A stretch of 64,000 nt of DNA from a virus, in IMG/VR virus record IMGVR_UViG_3300005471_000011, positions 1 to 64,000 of that record; one strand, 5' to 3'. Positions 4,291 to 17,271 of the stretch are shown in pieces. Position 1 is the first letter of the stretch. The number at the start of each line of letters is the position of its first letter. The translations under genes and the position numbers were made by a program. Below the pieces are notes generated by a model. The model was not told the origin of the DNA, made no database searches, and saw nothing but the letters and a program-made list of their open reading frames with translations.

Positions 4291-6081
4291 ATGCAAACCA
4301 AAAGCGTTGTACGCCAAGTCGCTGAAGTATGGCTGATCGTCGCGGCGTTCATCGGGCTGATGATGCTGCTCGTGGGCGTCAAGCGAGCCCGAGGGGAGGA
4401 TGCCCAGGTGATCGGATTCTCGGCGAGCTGGTGCCCGAATTGTAAGAGTCCCAAGCAGCAGCAGGCGTGGGACACGCTGAAAACAAAAGCCGGCGCAGTG
4501 GTGTATGACATCGACCTCTATCCCGCCGAGGCAGCCAAGTGGCGAGTCTCGGCGGTGCCAACTACGCTCGTGGTGAGCGGGGGCCAAGAGCGGCAGCGGT
4601 TTAATGGCTTCGCACAAAGCGGAGATGTTCTTTCCGTCGTCCATCAGCTTGCCGCGCCGGCACGGGCGGTCCCGCCGGAGCGCAGCGCGCAGCAGGCGCA
4701 CATGCGTCTTGGCTCAAATTTATCCAAGGGATCGCTGCTACTGAGCCTGGGTGCGTCCAAAGCTATCGGGCCACCCGTGCGTCTAATCACAGAATCCGCC
4801 GAATCAGAAATCCGCGCCATGCTGCCGACGACGGACAACGACGCTATCAACGAGCTGCTGGCTGCGCCGGACTTGCTGTTCTACAACGAGCAGGTGATGC
4901 CGCAAGCTTACCAATTCCAAAACTCGTTTCACGATCCGCACCACAACATCGCGGACCCGCGCGAGAACGACAAATTCGGCAACGGCAACCTGGAGTTCCC
5001 GTGGCGCGTTCCCGGCGGCACCGAGAACGTCAAGGGACTGCAAGCGTATCGCTTCGTCCGCTTCCCGCAGAAGGACGACGGCAGCTATTGGCCGATGGTC
5101 ATGTTCGACGCACGCTATCCCGGCGTCCAGACTGGCGAGGCGCGCGGCGCGATTTCTGAGCATCAGTGGATGTACCCGCGCGGCACGGTGTTCGGGGAGC
5201 TACTGTGCATGGAGCACGGCGAGCTGCTTTATCCGTTCGAGTTGCGGCTGCGGTTCCGCGAGTCAACCTACTGGGAAGTGGACGCTTACCGACCGTTTCC
5301 CACGGCTGCCAAGCTGTCCGCGCGGATTAAGGAATTGCGGCCCGAATGGACGGCGGCACCGAAGCTGGCGAGCCTTGTCGAACACCTTGACGGCAGCCAG
5401 CAGATCGTCAATACGCGGTTCAGCGACAGCAACCCTACTCGCAGGGCCTTCTCCACGGTGGGCGGCATCGACGAGCTGCCGCCGATCAACGATGACGAAT
5501 TGGTTGCCGAACTACTGACGCGCGGCAAGTGGCAGAGCGCCGCCGGGGAGAGTTGGAAGACTGTGCGCGGCGTCGAGGCTCACGCGCCGACGGTCGCCAA
5601 GGGCGCAGGATTTCACGTCGTGCCGGAGCAGTATGGGGCGCATGCGTTTGGCGTGGATAGCGTCTCTTGCATGCACTGCCATGAGCACACGGGGATCGCC
5701 GTCCGAAACTTCGCCGCCAATCGTGGTTGGTACGGGCGAATCCGTGGAAGCGACGGGATTATCAGCTTCCACCCGATTGATCCAACGGCGATCTCGGCGA
5801 CCAAAGAGGCTACGCAGTACACGCTGGCAAACTTCGTGTCCAGCTATAAAGAGCGAGGCATGACCTTGACGGAGATTTTGGACCGCCAAGGGAGGTTGGA
5901 TGCCTTCACGTTGACGGTTCCTGGTCAGCGGGCGCAGCGTGTAGAGGCACCGCGAGCTGACGACAATTTGCCAGTGCGCTACCGGCCAGACTTCATTGCG
6001 GCTGGCATCGTGCTGGACTACGATCCCGCCAAGTGCCCCGAGGATCGCTACCAGAGGATCACCATGTTGGGGGTGCGATGA
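4291..6081 (+). CDS. exported thioredoxin-domain protein with a C-terminal c-type heme-binding motif
   Basis: N-terminal TM/signal, FSASWCPNC and VPT thioredoxin motifs, SCMHCHE (CxxCH). Confidence 0.75.
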   Translation: MQTKSVVRQVAEVWLIVAAFIGLMMLLVGVKRARGEDAQVIGFSASWCPNCKSPKQQQAWDTLKTKAGAVVYDIDLYPAEAAKWRVSAVPTTLVVSGGQERQRFNGFAQSGDVLSVVHQLAAPARAVPPERSAQQAHMRLGSNLSKGSLLLSLGASKAIGPPVRLITESAESEIRAMLPTTDNDAINELLAAPDLLFYNEQVMPQAYQFQNSFHDPHHNIADPRENDKFGNGNLEFPWRVPGGTENVKGLQAYRFVRFPQKDDGSYWPMVMFDARYPGVQTGEARGAISEHQWMYPRGTVFGELLCMEHGELLYPFELRLRFRESTYWEVDAYRPFPTAAKLSARIKELRPEWTAAPKLASLVEHLDGSQQIVNTRFSDSNPTRRAFSTVGGIDELPPINDDELVAELLTRGKWQSAAGESWKTVRGVEAHAPTVAKGAGFHVVPEQYGAHAFGVDSVSCMHCHEHTGIAVRNFAANRGWYGRIRGSDGIISFHPIDPTAISATKEATQYTLANFVSSYKERGMTLTEILDRQGRLDAFTLTVPGQRAQRVEAPRADDNLPVRYRPDFIAAGIVLDYDPAKCPEDRYQRITMLGVR

Positions 6082-7169: not shown

Positions 7170-7406
7170 ATGAAAGTCCCCGAGTGGTTTTGGTCGGGAA
7201 TTGTGATTGTCGCTCTTGTGGGCGCGGTCGGATTTACGGCAGAATGGACGCGCGAGGAGCTTACCGAGCAGCGGCACATCAACCAAGCCCAGGCCGATGC
7301 GCTCGCGAGCTTGCTCGTTGAAGTGGACCACTTGAAAGAGGACGTCAAGCGATTGGACGATCAGGGGCTAATGACATGGCGGAGACCGACCAGACAGTGT
7401 CCTTGA
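7170..7406 (+). CDS. small membrane-anchored coiled-coil protein
   Basis: N-terminal TM followed by a heptad pattern. Confidence 0.6.
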   Translation: MKVPEWFWSGIVIVALVGAVGFTAEWTREELTEQRHINQAQADALASLLVEVDHLKEDVKRLDDQGLMTWRRPTRQCP

Positions 7407-7843
7407 AAGAGCACCTGCTCGCGCTGTTGAATGAGCGGCAGTTGCGAACAGATTCGCGATTCGATGCCATCAACCGCATGCTGGACAGCGCCGAGGAGAG
7501 CGTTAAGAGCGAGCTGGCCGCCGCCAACCTGGCGACTCAGACCTCGATGGAGTCCTCTGAGAAGGCGGTGCTCAAAGCGGAAACTGCTGCGGAAAAAAGA
7601 TTTGAAGCCGTAAACGAATTTCGCGCGCAGCTTGCCGATCAACAGGCTACTCTTGCCCGCAAGGCCGAAGTCGAGATCAGGTTCTCCGCATTGGAGGACA
7701 AGCTCAACCGCTCCATCGCGCAGCAGCAGCTCGCCGCCGGCCGGGAAAGCGGCATCGGTTCAGCCTGGAGCGTGGTCATCGTCGTTGCAACGCTGGTCAT
7801 CGCCACGGCGGCTATCGTGGTAACGGTGTTGCTTAAAGGCTAG
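7376..7843 (+). CDS. coiled-coil protein with a C-terminal TM (holin/XhlA-like topology)
   Basis: Long coiled coil plus a single C-terminal hydrophobic helix. Confidence 0.6.
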   Translation: MAETDQTVSLKEHLLALLNERQLRTDSRFDAINRMLDSAEESVKSELAAANLATQTSMESSEKAVLKAETAAEKRFEAVNEFRAQLADQQATLARKAEVEIRFSALEDKLNRSIAQQQLAAGRESGIGSAWSVVIVVATLVIATAAIVVTVLLKG

Positions 7844-7845
7844 CA

Positions 7846-7874
7846 TTGACAAGCCGGTTGGTTTCCTGTAAAAT
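7846..7874 (+). promoter_or_regulatory. sigma70-type promoter
   Basis: TTGACA-N17-TAAAAT. Confidence 0.8.
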
Positions 7875-7937
7875 GCTGGCGTCCAAGGAATGGCGCAACC
7901 AGCGGCGGAGCCGCGGAGCACAAACAGGGGAACCAAA

Positions 7938-9458
7938 ATGGCTAAGACTTCCAAGGCGCAAGTTGCGCCGACAGCGAAAACGCTGATTCTTCAATTCAAG
8001 GCTGCCAAGCGCGTAGGAACACCAATCCTTGCGATTCAGACGCCGGATCAATTCGCGACGGTCAATCGCATCTCGGAGGCGATCAATGACACGCCGTTCG
8101 TGCTGTGGGACGTCATCCGGGGATTCACGGCGCTCAATGAACCAGGCAAGGCGGTGATCAGCCGCATCTGTCCCAATGGCGGCATTGACGCAGCCGGGCA
8201 CATCATGCTGGCGGCAGAGCATGCTGCGAATGCGCCGGGCGGCACGGTGTTCTTCTGCCTCAATGCGCAGCGGCACATCGATGAGGCACGCGGGGCGCAG
8301 GCGATTTCTAACCTGCGGGACCAGTTCAAGAAATCACCGGCGCGTATGCTGGTGTTGGTGGGTCCGCAGTTGCAGATGCCGGCGGAGCTACAGTCTGACG
8401 TGGTGACGTTCGACGAACCGCTGCCGGGCCAGGACGAGCTGGCGGATATCGTCAAGGCGATCTATCAAGCCAGCGACCAGGACGCCGCACCGGAGGTCGT
8501 TCTGCGGGCGGTGGAGGCCACGCAAGGCTTGCCGGCGTTCGCGGCCGAGCAGGTCACGGCGATGAGCATGACCAAGGACGGGTTGGACATCGACTCACTG
8601 TGGGAGAGGAAGCGCAAGCAGATCGAGCAGACGCCAGGACTTTCCGTGTCGCGGGAGGGAATCAAGTTCGCGGACCTGGGCGGGTTAGACACGATCAAAG
8701 ACTACCTGAAGTCGCTGATTGCTGGGCAGTCGCGTCCCAACGCCTGCATCTGGATCGATGAGATCGAGAAGCTGTTGGCCGGTAGTTCAGGCGACACCAG
8801 CGGCGTCACCCAGGACCAACTCGGCACGCTGCTGTCATACATGCAGGACAATCGCTGCACTGGGGTCTTGCTGGTTGGCGTTCCGGGTTCGGGGAAGTCG
8901 GCCGTCGCCAAGGCCACGGGCAACGAGGCGGGCATCCCGACGGTGAGGCTCGACCTGGGGGCGTGCAAAAATTCGCTGGTCGGCCAGAGTGAGCAGCAGC
9001 TCCGCAGCGCGCTGAAGGTGATCACGTCGATCAGCAACGGCACGACGCTATGGGTGGCGACCTGCAACAGCTTGGCGGCGCTGCCGCCGGAGCTACGCCG
9101 GAGGTTCAGGGCGGGGCTTTTCTATTTTGATCTGCCGCTGCCAGAGGAGCGAGCTGCGATCTGGAAGGTACACCGCAAGCGGCATGAGATCCAAGCAGGC
9201 GACAAGCAGCCAAACGACGACGGATGGACCGGCGCCGAAGTGGAGCAGTGCTGCGAGTTGGCTTGGAGGCTGCGCCGCCCATTAATGGAAGCAGCCAAGT
9301 TTGTCGTGCCGATCAGCCAGTCAGCGCCGGACCGGATCGAGCAGCTTCGCCAGCAGGCCGACGGGCGGTGGTTGAGCGCTTCCATGCCGGGGGTTTACCG
9401 TCGCAATCAGGAACCGGCGGTCGCAAGATCGCGATGGAGGACTAATGAACGCCAGTAA
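7938..9458 (+). CDS. Ycf46-like AAA+ ATPase with permuted Walker B/Walker A order
   Basis: FADLGGL..IK, IWIDEIEK, GVPGSGKS, VATCN, LPPELRRRF, WTGAEVEQ. Confidence 0.85.
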   Translation: MAKTSKAQVAPTAKTLILQFKAAKRVGTPILAIQTPDQFATVNRISEAINDTPFVLWDVIRGFTALNEPGKAVISRICPNGGIDAAGHIMLAAEHAANAPGGTVFFCLNAQRHIDEARGAQAISNLRDQFKKSPARMLVLVGPQLQMPAELQSDVVTFDEPLPGQDELADIVKAIYQASDQDAAPEVVLRAVEATQGLPAFAAEQVTAMSMTKDGLDIDSLWERKRKQIEQTPGLSVSREGIKFADLGGLDTIKDYLKSLIAGQSRPNACIWIDEIEKLLAGSSGDTSGVTQDQLGTLLSYMQDNRCTGVLLVGVPGSGKSAVAKATGNEAGIPTVRLDLGACKNSLVGQSEQQLRSALKVITSISNGTTLWVATCNSLAALPPELRRRFRAGLFYFDLPLPEERAAIWKVHRKRHEIQAGDKQPNDDGWTGAEVEQCCELAWRLRRPLMEAAKFVVPISQSAPDRIEQLRQQADGRWLSASMPGVYRRNQEPAVARSRWRTNERQ

Positions 9459-9778
9459 GCAAATCGCCCGGCTGCTCAACCGCATCGAAGTCCTGGAGAG
9501 GCGCAACGCATTGCTTCGCGCCGAGGTCGAGCGGCAGGCACACGGCGAGCAATTGCCGTGGACGAAGTTTGAGGTAGCCAACTTTGGCATCTTCGGCGAC
9601 GGGCAAGTCATCCGCCATCAGGACTGTACGGTGTACGTCAACTCACGGTATCAAGTCAGCGTGTTCGATATGGGCGACAACACGATGGCGCACCTATCCA
9701 GCGGATCAAGAGAAGCCAATCGACTTGGAGAACATTTCAGCGGAGCGACTGGCAGCCTTCGCGGGCCTGGAGGATTAA
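9445..9778 (+). pseudogene. frameshifted conserved phage protein (junction near 9695)
   Basis: The N-terminal frame reads VYVNSRYQV..HLS; the second frame (YPADQE...) ends at TAA 9778 abutting the next ATG. Confidence 0.55.
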
Positions 9779-10297
9779 ATGGCAACGCTGTTTTTAATCG
9801 AGCGACCAAAGCACAACAGTCCAGCGATCCGCGACGCGGCCATTGATACGATCTTGCCCGAGGTCCTGTCATGGCTCCAGAAAGACGGCATCGCGGAAGA
9901 TAGGCCCGAAGAAGTACGCGTCGATCTAGCCAACGCCTTGCATGGGCTGTCTGACGGCTATGAAGCGGCAAGATCGCTGGATCGCGACGGTTGGAGCCCC
10001 GACGCGCGATTGGTGGAGATATTAGACGGGTTTTCTTATGTAGAACATGCCGCGCATCGTAAGGCAGTCAAAGCTTGGGTCGTGGAGAGTGGCGAGTTTC
10101 TTAAACCCCAGTTTGAGGTAGGGCAGCAGGTGTCTTTCAAGCGTAACTTTGGCCGGGAAACCGTCACAGGAAAGATAGTATCTATCGATATGGAGAGCGC
10201 CACTTATACTGTTGAAAAGCCAGGCGATGGTATCACTAAAAACGGCTGCACGACGATTGGTTCAGTCATAAACTGGGAGGACGCGGAGGCAGCATAA
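9779..10297 (+). CDS. hypothetical protein with an SH3/KOW-like C-terminus
   Basis: GGAGG RBS; FEVGQQV..TGKIV..YTV. Confidence 0.65.
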   Translation: MATLFLIERPKHNSPAIRDAAIDTILPEVLSWLQKDGIAEDRPEEVRVDLANALHGLSDGYEAARSLDRDGWSPDARLVEILDGFSYVEHAAHRKAVKAWVVESGEFLKPQFEVGQQVSFKRNFGRETVTGKIVSIDMESATYTVEKPGDGITKNGCTTIGSVINWEDAEAA

Positions 10298-10404
10298 CCC
10301 GAACAGTTCTTGGGATCGGAGGTACGCGCCGGTCCCAGGTTCCCCAGGTCCGGTCAGCCGGGACTCGGCTGGCCGGGCCGCTCTTACAAAGTGAACGGTA
10401 AATC

Positions 10405-10683
10405 ATGGGCGCACTTTGCGAACGTCGCACAGTCGGTGGCATCATAGAGGTTTGCTGCCATTACGTTTCATGGTGGTTCGACCTCGATGACGTGATGCTC
10501 ACTGATGAACTACGAAAGAGATTGGAGGCAGAGGCGGAAGAACGAGCGAAAGCGATGATTATTGAAGGCTTCCATAGCGGCGACCTGTGCCACTTCTACT
10601 GTGAAGAGAAACCGCGCACGATTACCGGACGTTTTGCTAAAGGCGAATACGAATTGTTCGGCTGGTGGAGCATTAAGAGTTAA
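10405..10683 (+). CDS. hypothetical protein
   Basis: ORF coupled to the next gene. Confidence 0.6.
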   Translation: MGALCERRTVGGIIEVCCHYVSWWFDLDDVMLTDELRKRLEAEAEERAKAMIIEGFHSGDLCHFYCEEKPRTITGRFAKGEYELFGWWSIKS

Positions 10684-11673: not shown

Positions 11674-12595
11674 CCGCCAGCGGCTTGATCCTGTACGAAG
11701 GCCACAGCTTAATCGACGGCGAGTCAATCGTCTGCATTGCCACGGGCCTGAAGCAGCGCAGCTTGAACGCCAAGACCGGCCCGATGGTCCAGACTTGGAT
11801 TCTGCGCGACGACGTCTCACCGGAGGCCGCAGTTGCAACTGGCGAAGATCGATCAATCTGCGGTGACTGCAAATTGCGCGGCGTAATCCAAAGGCTCCAC
11901 AACCAAGAGCAGGTAAATCGCTTCCGGGGTTGTTACGTCTTCGTGCAGCAGGCCCCCCAAGCCGTCTGGGAAGCGTACAAGCGCGGCCTGCACGCGCCGG
12001 CGGCCACAGGCGATCTTGCAGGCCAATACGTCCGCGGCAGCTCGAATGCGCCGGCCATACAGGCTACACGCACCAATGGCGGGAGCGACGCGCCCAAGAG
12101 TACCGCAGCATGTTAATGGCCAGCGTGGAAAGCACGAAGGACGCAGCGGTTGCCCGCGCGATGGGTTGGCGCACCTTCCGCGTGGCGGTAACGGGTGAAG
12201 TCCCGGCCGCGGGCGAGTTTCATTGCCCAGCCACCGCAGAGCAAGGTCATCGCGAGACGTGCCAGACCTGCGGTGCCTGCGACGGTGCCGGGGACAATCC
12301 CGGTCGCGCCAACGTAATCATTTGGCCGCACGGTCCACCAGCGGCTGTCAAATCGTTCTATCGCACAGTGCGAGGCGATTCGAATGTGATTGTTCATCGC
12401 GAGCAGGCAAACGCTACCGACAGAGTGCTACTGGATGCGCTAGGGATGTCGGGGACCACCTCTGCGGCGGTGTTGGCGGACGCGACTGGTCGCAACCTGC
12501 AATCCGTGGCGACGCGGCTGTGGCACCTTCGGCAAATGGGGCTCGTGCGCAGAGTCGCGCGTGGGCAGTATGAATTGGCAAAGGAGCAAGCATGA
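11670..12595 (+). pseudogene. conserved Cys-rich phage enzyme-like protein with a C-terminal wHTH, split by a frameshift near 12035
   Basis: N-part (YEG.S.IDG, N.KTG.MVQTWILR, SICGDC) in the 11670 frame; C-part (TGYTHQW, MASVES, GWRTFRV, C..CGAC) in the 11930 frame. Confidence 0.7.
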
Positions 12596-13464
12596 CAAAA
12601 ACGCTGGGCGTGATTGGCGGGGGAGTTCTGGGACGCGCGGTAGCTCGCGGATTTCTGGAGCACCTTGAGGTCAAGGTATTCGACACGATCAAGGAGCGAG
12701 CGACGCATTCGCTAGAGGAAGCAGCGACGTGCGACATCGTGATGATCTGCCTGCCGACACCAGCCAAGCTGGACGGGCGCTGCGACACAAAAGCCATCGA
12801 CGACTTCCTGGACGTGGCGTTCACGCATGAATGGTGGCGACCGGATAGCTGCTACGTCATTCGATCTACTACACCAGTCGGGTACACCCAAGATCAAGCT
12901 CACAGCACCGACTTTGAGCGACCGCTGCTCCATAGTCCGGAGTCGCTGACTGCACGATGTGCCTTGACCGATTTCCAGATTCCGGCGAGGAACATCATCG
13001 GCATGCCTGGAAAGGGACACTGGATGCCGGCGAGCCCAGTAATCTACGAGGCATTCAAGCGGCTGAAGTCTGTTTATGAAAATCGTTTTCCTGGCGTCCC
13101 GGTGCTCGACATGGATGCGCGAGAATCCGAACTGGTAAAGTTGGCGTGCAATTCATTTTTCGCCGCCAAGGTCACGCTGTTCAACCTGTTCGCCGAGATG
13201 GCCAAGGCTAAAGACCTGGACTGGGAGACCGTGCGCGCCGGAATCTTGAGCGACGGCAGAATTGCGCATGCTCACACGGCGGTTCCGGGACCGTCTGGGG
13301 AGCGAGGCTACGCCGGAAGCTGCTTGGATAAGGACTTGGCGGACTTGTATCGCTGCTGCGAGGACGCCGCCGTGGATGCGGAAATCCTGCGGCAAGTCCT
13401 GGAGAGAAACAAGCTCACGCGGTCAGAAGCCGGCCTGAAAACCGCCGAAATTTCGCTATTTTAG
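12592..13464 (+). CDS. ugd: UDP-glucose/GDP-mannose dehydrogenase family protein lacking the C-terminal domain
   Basis: GxGxxG, ICLPTP, IRSTTPVG, SELVKLACNSF, GYAGSCLDKD. Confidence 0.8.
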   Translation: MTKTLGVIGGGVLGRAVARGFLEHLEVKVFDTIKERATHSLEEAATCDIVMICLPTPAKLDGRCDTKAIDDFLDVAFTHEWWRPDSCYVIRSTTPVGYTQDQAHSTDFERPLLHSPESLTARCALTDFQIPARNIIGMPGKGHWMPASPVIYEAFKRLKSVYENRFPGVPVLDMDARESELVKLACNSFFAAKVTLFNLFAEMAKAKDLDWETVRAGILSDGRIAHAHTAVPGPSGERGYAGSCLDKDLADLYRCCEDAAVDAEILRQVLERNKLTRSEAGLKTAEISLF

Positions 13465-14650: not shown

Positions 14651-15712
14651 ATGACGCTCGCCGCCGATGACCAAGCCGTATTCCCGAATTCAGAGGAAGC
14701 TGTTTTCGCTGAACAGCCCGATGGAACTATTGGGCCAGTGGAAGCATCGCCTGAACCGCAGCCCGTCACGCCCCAGGCAATCGCTGTCCAATTGCGCAAG
14801 GACATGAGCGCCGTGCGGCTGCACCGCGGCAAGTGGGGCATCAGCAAGAAGCTGGACCGGGACCAGACCGATCGCGCAGCCTTGGCGTTCAACGCGGACG
14901 GCAAGGCGCTGTCCGCGTCCAAGAAGATCGTCAACAGCAAGGACGACTGCCTGCGCAAGGTCAACGGCACGCTTGCCGAGGCGGTCCACTATTGGAAGTC
15001 GGTCACGATCCCCTACCCCGAAGATGGCGTGCGGCTGATCCGGCGGGAGCGGATCGACAAGTTCAACGAGACGATGACCGGCCTGCGCCAGCAGCTCCGC
15101 GCGGAGGCGCAGGAACTGGAGGCCAAGTACCAAGAGTTGGTCGAGGAGGCCAAGGGACGGCTGGGCGAGCTTTACAACGAGAACGACTACCCAGCCAGCG
15201 TCAAGGCGCTCTATCGGCTGGAGTGGGACTTCCCATCGGTCGAACCGCCCCCTCATCTGCTCGAAGTGGCACCGCAGGTTTACGCGCAGGAGATGGCCCG
15301 CATCCAGGCCCGCTTCGAGCTGGCGGTATCGCTGACTGAGGATGCCTTCGCGGACCAGTTCGCCAAGCTGCTGGAGAAGCTGACGCGGCAGTTATCGTTC
15401 GGCGAGCCGGAGATGGACCCAGCGACCGGCCAGATGGTGCGCAAGCCAAAGGCGTTCTACGAGTCCTCCATCGAAGGGTTGCAGGAATTCTTCGACCGCT
15501 TCAAGGCGCTGAACGTGGGAGGTTCCGAGGAGCTGGAGGCGTTAATCGCGGAAGCCAAGGCGGTTGTCGGGACGACGGACGCTAAGACGATCCGCAAGGA
15601 CGTGGCGACGCGCGGCGCCATCGAGCACGGGCTGGCCGACGTGGCGAACAAGCTCAACCAGATGATGCAGGTGCGGCCGATCCGGCAGATGAATCTTCTG
15701 GACGAAGAATAG
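14651..15712 (+). CDS. DUF3150-like helical protein
   Basis: LSASKK, YWKS.TIPYPEDGVRLIRR, LGELYN..DYP, FFDRFK.LNV motifs typical of the Ycf46/DUF1257-associated family. Confidence 0.65.
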   Translation: MTLAADDQAVFPNSEEAVFAEQPDGTIGPVEASPEPQPVTPQAIAVQLRKDMSAVRLHRGKWGISKKLDRDQTDRAALAFNADGKALSASKKIVNSKDDCLRKVNGTLAEAVHYWKSVTIPYPEDGVRLIRRERIDKFNETMTGLRQQLRAEAQELEAKYQELVEEAKGRLGELYNENDYPASVKALYRLEWDFPSVEPPPHLLEVAPQVYAQEMARIQARFELAVSLTEDAFADQFAKLLEKLTRQLSFGEPEMDPATGQMVRKPKAFYESSIEGLQEFFDRFKALNVGGSEELEALIAEAKAVVGTTDAKTIRKDVATRGAIEHGLADVANKLNQMMQVRPIRQMNLLDEE

Positions 15713-16563: not shown

Positions 16564-16998
16564 GTGAGCCATATATCTGAAATTTCGTTGGAGTTCAAGG
16601 ATTTGGATTGTATCGACGCTGCGTGTAAAGAGCTTGGTCTTGAATTAGTTCGCGGCAAAACGAGTTACAAATGGTGGGGAAAATGGATGAAAGATTCGCC
16701 GCTGCCTCCGGGCGTCAAGGAAGAAGACCTGGGCAAGTGCGACCACGCCATCAGGATTCCGGGCAACTCCAAAGCCTACGAGATCGGCGTCTGCAAGCTG
16801 GCTAACGGCAACTACTCGCTGCGCTGGGACTTCTGGCAGGGCGGCTACGGCATGCAGGACAAGGTCGGCGCGAACGCTGGCAAGCTGAGCCAGCTTTATG
16901 GAGTGCATGTTGCGGCAAAGGCGGCTCGCAAGCAAGGCTATTCAGTCCAGAGAAGGCAATTGCAGGACGGAAGAATTCAATTGATGTGCAGTCGATAA
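16564..16998 (+). CDS. DUF1257 (Ycf35-like) protein
   Basis: MSHI..I..EFKDL..I..AC.ELG; C-terminal ARKQGY.V...DG.I.L. Confidence 0.75.
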   Translation: MSHISEISLEFKDLDCIDAACKELGLELVRGKTSYKWWGKWMKDSPLPPGVKEEDLGKCDHAIRIPGNSKAYEIGVCKLANGNYSLRWDFWQGGYGMQDKVGANAGKLSQLYGVHVAAKAARKQGYSVQRRQLQDGRIQLMCSR

Positions 16999-17076
16999 TT
17001 CCGGCAGGTCGCGTCTTGGCTCGCAATCGACCGGTCCGGAGTGTCAGGGCAGGCAACTGAGAAGAGGCAAATACAA

Positions 17077-17271
17077 ATGGCAGCGATCATCATCACAATC
17101 GCGGATGGCGGCGCGACCGAGATTAAAGTCCAGGGCTGCGCCGGCCCGAGTTGCCAGAGCTTGACCGAGTCCATTGAGAAGGCGCTAGGAGTTAAGACCG
17201 CTGACGCCAAGACGCATGAGTACCACGCGGCAGTCACTCAGGGCCAGCGGGCTCAGGCTGGCGCGAAATGA
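17077..17271 (+). CDS. DUF2997 family protein
   Basis: I.ITI..GG...IKVQG..GPSC..LT..IEKALG. Confidence 0.75.
   Translation: MAAIIITIADGGATEIKVQGCAGPSCQSLTESIEKALGVKTADAKTHEYHAAVTQGQRAQAGAK

Follow-up and report, generated by a model that had tools for sequence, protein, structure and literature searches.

A phage-borne family of AAA proteins in which the Walker B unit stands ahead of Walker A

The window analysed here consists of the first 64 kb of a 104,107-bp IMG/VR virus record (IMGVR_UViG_3300005471_000011) whose completeness is estimated at 83%; its G+C content is about 60% and every long open reading frame (ORF) lies on the plus strand. At 7938..9458 on this strand the window carries the gene of an AAA ATPase in which the Walker B motif precedes Walker A in the chain, and it is this permuted protein and its relatives that are described in this work. 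The longest ORF (P0001) runs from 7890 to 9458 and encodes 522 amino acids, and residues are numbered throughout according to this form. The ATG at 7938 is, from its sequence context, the likely start codon, as a Shine-Dalgarno sequence (AGGGGA) is located 7 nt upstream; the resulting 506-aa form is also present in public collections. The choice between the two starts has no effect on the permutation.

Read from the N-terminus, the chain contains the GG motif (FADLGGL, 260-266), Walker B with D290 and E291 (CIWIDEIEK, 286-294; DNA 8745-8771), pore loop 2 (GDTSG, 301-305), a helix with LGTLLSYMQD, Walker A with K336 (GVLLVGVPGSGKS, 325-337), pore loop 1 (LVGQSE), sensor 1 (LWVATCN with N393; DNA 9066-9068) and the arginine fingers R404 and R405 (LPPELRRRF). 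This is the order in which a sequence-only reading of the window had listed the motifs, and all of them were recovered in that order in the ORF 7890-9458. In classical AAA proteins (PF00004) the linear order is Walker A, pore loop 1, Walker B, sensor 1. Here the catalytic pair of Walker B (290-291) is found 45 residues N-terminal of the Walker A lysine, the 41-residue strand-helix unit to which it belongs (283-323) precedes beta1 instead of occupying its usual place between alpha2 and beta4, and sensor 1 follows directly after alpha2. The elements of the gene are as follows (primes mark elements of the relocated unit).

7938..9458, plus strand: permuted AAA ATPase gene
7968..8624, plus strand: degenerate AAA-like (D1-like) N-terminal domain, residues 27-245, with no Walker motifs; its AlphaFold2 model aligns to p97/Cdc48 D1-D2 from residue 27
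8679..8684, plus strand: GG motif, G264 and G265, of the N-loop before alpha0
8736..8858, plus strand: relocated unit, residues 283-323, with beta3' (285-289, Walker B), pore loop 2 (GDTSG) and alpha3' (306-320)
8757..8762, plus strand: Walker B catalytic pair D290-E291
8859..9035, plus strand: block of beta1, P-loop, alpha1, beta2, pore loop 1 and alpha2, residues 324-382, here downstream of the Walker B unit
8877..8900, plus strand: Walker A or P-loop, GVPGSGKS, residues 330-337
8967..8984, plus strand: pore loop 1, K360 to G365, with the L-V-G motif; it co-varies with alpha3'
9045..9068, plus strand: beta4 with sensor 1 N393, only 3 residues after alpha2
9099..9104, plus strand: arginine fingers R404 and R405 (LPPELRRRF)
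9141..9407, plus strand: helical lid domain, residues 418-506, with the TGAE (447-450) typical of classical AAA proteins

The block-wise nature of the rearrangement is evident from alignments to proteins of canonical order. In phmmer searches of the PDB the query residues 324-377 aligned to residues 44-97 of the VAT/p97 chain and query residues 382-433 to residues 142-194, while the intervening Walker B-alpha3 segment of VAT (98-141) found no partner at the usual place. When four consecutive blocks of the protein were aligned singly to the canonical ATPase of phage JP1 they matched residues 309-325, 406-440, 345-402 and 451-491, i.e., blocks two and three are exchanged. The moved block (283-323) scores z = 9-12 against shuffled sequences in comparisons with canonical-order phage relatives, and putting it back after residue 382 in silico restores a collinear alignment with the ATPases of phages RHph_I4, JP1 and SM1, the sole remaining difference being that about 10 residues before beta1 are missing. 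Formally, the rearrangement permutes the sub-segment beta1-alpha3 circularly, or equivalently exchanges adjacent blocks of 59 and 41 residues. The sequence-only reading had described the upstream relocation of a beta-alpha unit, in frame and without loss of any motif, and this is borne out by the block-wise and put-back alignments as well as by the element inventory of the structural models, the conservation across the family and the covariation described below. Its term for the event, a non-circular permutation of the core, needs refinement: in formal terms the permutation of beta1-alpha3 is circular, and is accompanied by the loss of the residues before beta1.

The permuted order is a property of a family. 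The block lies before Walker A in all of 265 aligned database homologues when these are read by column profile; they include the best 150 representatives of clusters at 50% identity, all with E < 1e-111 (1239 representatives reach E < 1e-30 and 7220 reach E < 1e-3). Searching with motif patterns detected the permuted order in about 115 of the first 120 database homologues. Three cluster representatives (P0133, P0184 and P0257; 861-896 aa) exceed the family norm by about 370 residues and align to the query in two separate stretches. They could represent fusions or products of read-through.

Structure prediction with AlphaFold2 from an alignment of 142 sequences gave a model with a mean predicted local distance difference test score (pLDDT) of 93.4, rising to 95-98 across residues 280-330, and a predicted template modelling score of 0.87. 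The doubt whether a protein with this order would fold, raised together with the sequence-only reading, is therefore answered by a predicted fold of high confidence. The C-terminal module of the model is composed of alpha0 (267-277), a strand (285-289), helices at 292-299 and 306-320, beta1 (324-330), alpha1, beta2 (351-354), alpha2 (364-382), beta4 (386-392) and beta5 (410-413), followed by the lid; there are exactly five core strands. A control model of the canonical ATPase of RHph_I4 (pLDDT 88.9) shows the same elements in the usual order. Both models align over their whole length to p97 D1-D2, the permuted one to p97/Cdc48 D1-D2 (7lmz_C) with Z 19.6 and a root-mean-square deviation (rmsd) of 5.1 over 408 aligned residues, and this match indicates a two-tier AAA protein whose D1-like tier has no motifs. 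On its own, the C-terminal module aligns to p97 D2 (3cf0_A) with Z 16.9 and an rmsd of 2.6 A over 204 residues, compared with Z 24.0, 2.9 A and 261 residues for the canonical control on the same chain, and to Vps4 with Z 17.0 and an rmsd of 3.0 over 212 residues. Across three shared targets the permuted model is short of 48-57 aligned residues relative to the canonical one, roughly the loss that a sequential aligner would incur with nothing but the moved unit and the missing segment before beta1 out of order.

The position of the relocated unit was further addressed by mean-field direct coupling analysis (DCA) of 344 permuted sequences (effective number 278), considering the top 150 pairs in the module. 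Of these, 46 connect the block with other parts of the module; in 30 of the 46 the partner lies in beta2, pore loop 1, alpha2 or beta4, against an expectation of 21% (binomial p = 1e-10). They include pairs between beta3' and beta4 (I292-A390, 286-389, 287-388, 289-388), one between beta3' and beta2 (288-353), seven between alpha3' and alpha2, eight between alpha3' and pore loop 1, and the pair A285-S382, whose members are neighbours in the canonical chain. Couplings of this kind to alpha2 were absent from beta1 and alpha1 in the same analysis. The segment of GG and alpha0 co-varies with the P-loop and alpha1 (L263 and L266 with G335 and A338), like the adenine-side N-loop of ordinary AAA proteins. 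Bearing on the ASCE sheet order 5-1-4-3-2 are the five core strands, the match to p97 D2 and the covariation of the moved strand with beta2 and beta4, from which the strand positions were inferred. Taken from sequence and model, the most likely position of the relocated unit is the canonical slot, against beta2, alpha2 and beta4.

Two observations weigh against this placement. W288 couples with A340 and with Y412 of beta5, neither of which fits a simple neighbour of a beta3 strand, and the AlphaFold2 model and the DCA share one covariation signal and hence are not independent of each other. Such couplings are what might be seen if the unit lay outside the canonical beta3 position, either in a new strand order or swapped into the neighbouring protomer, with a new active-site geometry; a monomer model with an inferred strand order is compatible with domain swapping. 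We regard such an arrangement as unlikely, because the couplings of the block are concentrated on the canonical neighbours, including both beta3'-beta4 and beta3'-beta2 pairs, because the link from alpha3' to beta1 is of about 3 residues with rigid spacing and is too short to reach another protomer, because the catalytic D and E, like K336 and N393, do not vary, and because the remainder of the domain fits p97 D2 with an rmsd of 2.6 A.

Residue conservation across the 265 homologues follows the set expected of a classical AAA protein. E291, K336, N393 and R405 are each found in 100% of the sequences, G265 in 99%, D290 in 98%, R404 in 94% and S337 in 93%; the catalytic set as a whole, composed of K336, D290/E291, N393, R404/R405 and the TGAE at 447-450 (a GAE-type lid motif, with no sensor 2 arginine), is 94-100% conserved. 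The spacing between anchors is rigid: from the GG motif to E291 there are 26 residues in 255 of the 265 proteins and from K336 to S367 there are 31 in 261. Between S367 and N393 all 265 permuted proteins have 24-28 residues, which leaves no room for a relic beta3 strand between alpha2 and beta4. Conservation and spacing of this kind are what a working ATP site would show. In residues and fold the ATPase belongs to the classical clade of AAA proteins, from which it departs in one defining feature, the linear order of the motifs.

Annotation profiles respond to this departure. An alignment to PF00004, proposed along with the sequence-only reading, scored 60.5 bits and is thus above the gathering score (21.2), but it is split into two separate stretches, the best of which covers profile positions 1-53 only. 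The NCBIfam CDC48 model gives the permuted ATPase 25.8 bits and a canonical relative 130.3 bits. Among phage protein families the ATPase matches phrog_8638 (E = 1.4e-51). An assignment to the anti-phage defence ATPase IetA/IteA (PADLOC, NCBIfam) was rejected, as scores of 19-25 bits against a cut-off of 510 reflect generic AAA similarity. The low profile scores might suggest a catalytically dead scaffold or pseudo-ATPase in which the upstream DEIEK is a relic and not a working Walker B, and the last glycine of the P-loop is indeed replaced by A or S in many members (GxxGxAKS). This is more improbable still than a displaced strand: the scores are low because collinearity is broken, and the 98-100% conservation of D290, E291, K336, N393 and R405 among proteins that are 40-60% identical to the window protein points to selection on catalysis.

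Since the window derives from a metagenomic virus record, the motif order was also considered as an artefact of the contig. The 160 related loci considered comprise 80 from species-representative genomes and metagenome-assembled genomes (MAGs), collected with an alignment of 20 sequences, and 80 from IMG/VR. The permuted order was found by motif pattern in 78 of the 80 genome and MAG loci, the other two keeping the block with the variant Walker B sequences DEGEK and EEIEK, and in all 80 IMG/VR loci; it is also present in gp103 of the cultured and fully sequenced Tunturiibacter phage Tunturi_3. A contig produced by a different assembler from a public rhizosphere metagenome run is identical to the window across 7600-9800 and has no joints. 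This run, the only public one found to hold the stretch, is probably the source sample of the window and so tests the assembly and not independent occurrence. With the order common to hundreds of independently assembled sequences and an isolated phage, an uninterrupted frame and an identical second assembly, the probability of an assembly or sequencing artefact is close to nil, and both the mis-assembly and the lack of independent homologues that the sequence-only reading had named as its weak points are disposed of. The permuted family is very large, resides in soil and freshwater phages and in integrated elements, and the feature itself is real, ancient, selected and widespread.

The nearest relatives of canonical order are also phage proteins. 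Walker A precedes Walker B in the ATPases of phages RHph_I4/L338C, JP1, SM1 and HJ05 and of the satellite Javan368, and canonical order was found in 117 of 120 RHph_I4-like database proteins. The proteins RHph_I4 EVC24_084, vB_RleS_L338C, JP1_048, SM1_026 and HJ05_65 have the two-tier architecture in common with the permuted ATPase, together with the GG motif, the LVGQSE pore loop, the DE[IV][DE]K...GDSG of pore loop 2, sensor 1 and PPEL-RR. The setting is common too, as these are phages of about 80-110 kb with the ATPase upstream of DUF1257 and DUF2997 genes and, in JP1, RHph_I4 and SM1, after the lysis cassette. Identity to the permuted protein is 22-26% over 55-93% of the length, and in the SM1 group only the C-terminal 37% aligns, at 30%. 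The canonical phage ATPases differ in having Walker B after Walker A (54 residues from K to E) and about 10 extra residues before beta1, and in carrying RRGR or RKGR where the permuted form has RRRF. Across about 118 canonical proteins the distance from GG to K is always 40 and that from K to E always 54.

A maximum-likelihood tree of 63 permuted sequences, with the block put back, and 58 canonical ones parts the two forms at a single branch with a Shimodaira-Hasegawa-like approximate likelihood ratio test (SH-aLRT) value of 100, so that one change suffices. This supports, short of an exhaustive test, a single origin of the rearrangement. To our knowledge every other AAA+ protein has the canonical order, and the permuted form would therefore be the derived one. 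Sub-segment permutations of this type arise, in the textbook scheme, when the segment (here beta1-alpha3) is duplicated and two deletions follow. Two points stand against this account of the origin: the canonical part of the tree sample is dominated by one subfamily, and no intermediate with two Walker B units, nor any relic of a second Walker B, was found among the 265 permuted and about 118 canonical proteins. The route of the rearrangement is for this reason a conjecture.

Among better known systems the best structural matches of the ATPase are the type II AAA proteins p97/VCP, Cdc48, Rix7 and NVL, and Vps4/spastin, at 15-24% sequence identity; against p97-type targets it has about 50 fewer sequentially alignable residues than the canonical phage relative, and its D1-like tier lacks nucleotide motifs. 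Ycf46 of cyanobacteria and plastids is likewise a classical-clade AAA protein with a non-catalytic N-terminal domain, but is a cellular or organellar and not a phage gene, and has the canonical motif order. The nearest precedent known to us is that of the circularly permuted P-loop GTPases (YlqF/YawG/YjeQ), which keep fold and activity with reordered motifs. These belong to the TRAFAC superfamily and are permuted over the whole domain (G4-G5-G1-G2-G3), whereas in the ATPase two internal blocks are swapped. A literature search of limited coverage (AAA+ permutation, Ycf46, DUF1257/DUF2997) found no published description of an AAA protein with Walker B before Walker A. As summarised in a recent preprint, Ycf46 is reported to interact with KaiC and is linked to stress and CO2 responses, its function being poorly understood (bioRxiv 10.1101/2025.07.21.665879).

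Downstream of the ATPase gene the window carries three further genes that recur beside its relatives.

14651..15712, plus strand: partner X, 353 aa, helical and weakly DUF3150-like; on the same strand as the ATPase in 114 of 116 related loci
16564..16998, plus strand: DUF1257 (Ycf35-like) partner; PF06868, E = 1.6e-6, 28.7 bits, above the cut-off; in 98 of 116 loci
17041..17271, plus strand: DUF2997 partner; PF11211, E = 7e-11, 42.3 bits; in 88 of 116 loci

These counts were obtained with iterated profiles over the 160 related loci, 116 of which cover 8 kb or more on the downstream side of the ATPase gene. X, DUF1257 and DUF2997 occur all together in 87 of the 116 loci, always on the strand of the ATPase. 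The commonest gene orders are ATPase-DUF1257-DUF2997-X (56 loci) and ATPase-X-DUF1257-DUF2997 (21 loci), the latter being that of the window, which combines a two-tier ATPase with DUF1257 and DUF2997 genes nearby on the same strand. Genes for DUF1257 and DUF2997 are also carried by the canonical-order phages, and X was not detected beside canonical-order phage ATPases within the 4-5 kb flanks examined. In cyanobacteria DUF1257 (Ycf35) and DUF2997 are described, in a published account, as linked to each other and located beside fed7 (PMC4284462).

X-type proteins form a family of about 320 aa, a further copy of which lies at 9621-10649 of one related locus (L001). The likeness to DUF3150 (PF11348, cut-off 24.9) stays below the gathering score, at 13.3 bits (E = 0.053) for the window protein and 23.0 bits (E = 5.5e-5) for the member at locus L071, and searches found no PHROG match and no solved homologue (best PDB E = 0.06). 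The Tunturi_3 homologue is annotated as an HNH endonuclease; the window's X has no HNH match in Pfam. In a Planctomycetaceae MAG (L010) the ATPase, X and DUF1257 genes overlap stop-to-start, and a 90-aa ORF with no Pfam match lies 7 nt further on. This compact run of four genes is directly preceded by a 494-aa ORF (8517-10001 of the same locus), which overlaps with the beginning of the ATPase gene and whose N-terminus contains a P-loop weakly similar to SMC/RecF (AAA_23/AAA_27, E ~3e-3).

The distribution of this module extends beyond free phages. Family members were also found on megabase contigs of Bryobacterales and other Acidobacteriota, and some MAGs hold several copies: three to five modules per Acidobacteriota MAG, some on contigs of 2-3.6 Mb, with one copy 5 kb from a Gp3-like recombination directionality factor. 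Multi-copy MAGs are MFD05580.bin.1.127 (L059, L070, L071), DASTOOL.2.5kb_066 (L036, L039, L054) and Bryobacter Bin_54_2 (L024, L032, L056, L063). The multiple copies may represent several prophages or another integrated element, and the copies on megabase contigs together with the directionality factor indicate that the module also lives in integrated elements. The module is widespread and is composed of four genes, in soil and freshwater phages and in genomes of Acidobacteriota, Planctomycetota and Armatimonadota.

The explanation that we favour, with a probability of about 0.8 for the whole of it, is that of a functional, Ycf46-like two-tier AAA protein of the classical clade, of single origin, in which the beta3 unit has moved before beta1 but keeps its canonical place in space, and which probably acts as the remodeller of a gene module. 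The protein would pair a degenerate N-terminal AAA-like domain with an active C-terminal one in which beta3 (with Walker B), pore loop 2 and alpha3 were transferred from their place between alpha2 and beta4 to a position directly ahead of beta1. Lying in the slot between beta2/alpha2 and beta4, the unit would complete an ATP site of K336, D290/E291, N393 and, in trans, R404/R405, and would leave the pore loops as they are in ordinary rings. Three connections would be rewired, alpha0-beta3' with a shift of two strands, and alpha3'-beta1 and alpha2-beta4, of 3 residues, each to one neighbouring strand; as these shifts are small, the swap would be tolerated on geometric grounds. It would have arisen once, in a lineage of canonical-order phage ATPases, probably by duplication and deletion or by a block swap of the beta1-alpha3 segment. 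The predicted product is an ATP-driven hexameric remodeller or unfoldase, probably acting on or with DUF1257, DUF2997 and the DUF3150-like protein.

The order Walker A, Walker B, sensor 1 has been treated as invariant in AAA+ proteins and is built into every annotation profile; profiles match the permuted ATPases only in fragments, and the family is under-annotated as a result. A large, selected family with swapped core blocks would mean that the ASCE fold tolerates three rewired connections around its catalytic strand, and would provide a natural experiment on folding order, on the allosteric coupling of ATP site and pore loops and on the evolution of topology. The cultured phage Tunturi_3 makes the module experimentally tractable. 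We would give roughly even odds to the strongest form of the claim, namely that the family represents the first natural swap of non-terminal segments in an AAA+/ASCE catalytic core that is shared by a whole family, with the enzyme still active. In this form the Walker B strand, pore loop 2 and the helix for inter-subunit signalling would be joined directly to the N-terminal linker and to beta1, the rewiring would alter the mechanical coupling of events at the ATP site to the pore loops and the D1-like tier upstream, and it may have co-evolved with X, which was detected here only beside the permuted form.

Upstream of the ATPase gene the window has the following promoter-like sequence.

7846..7874, plus strand: sigma-70-like promoter (TTGACA, 17-nt spacer, TAAAAT), a consensus match only, 11 of 12 positions, directly upstream of the ATPase gene

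This site would fit expression of the ATPase gene as a unit of its own; the listing of public runs that hold the gene has no RNA dataset among them. Directly upstream of the ATPase gene there is also a spanin-like ORF at 7376-7843 (phrog_3268, E = 3e-4), and lysis genes followed by the ATPase are likewise found in JP1, RHph_I4 and SM1. The neighbours of the protein in the ESM Atlas are only AAA clusters, mostly viral or of Acidobacteriota, and no structure of the ATPase is held there. Elsewhere in the window, a 596-aa protein encoded at 4291-6081 carries a thioredoxin domain at its N-terminus (PF00085, E = 2.3e-9) and matches no PHROG, and the ORF at 12592-13464 is a phage gene resembling UDP-glucose/GDP-mannose dehydrogenases (PF00984, PF03721; phrog_9148).

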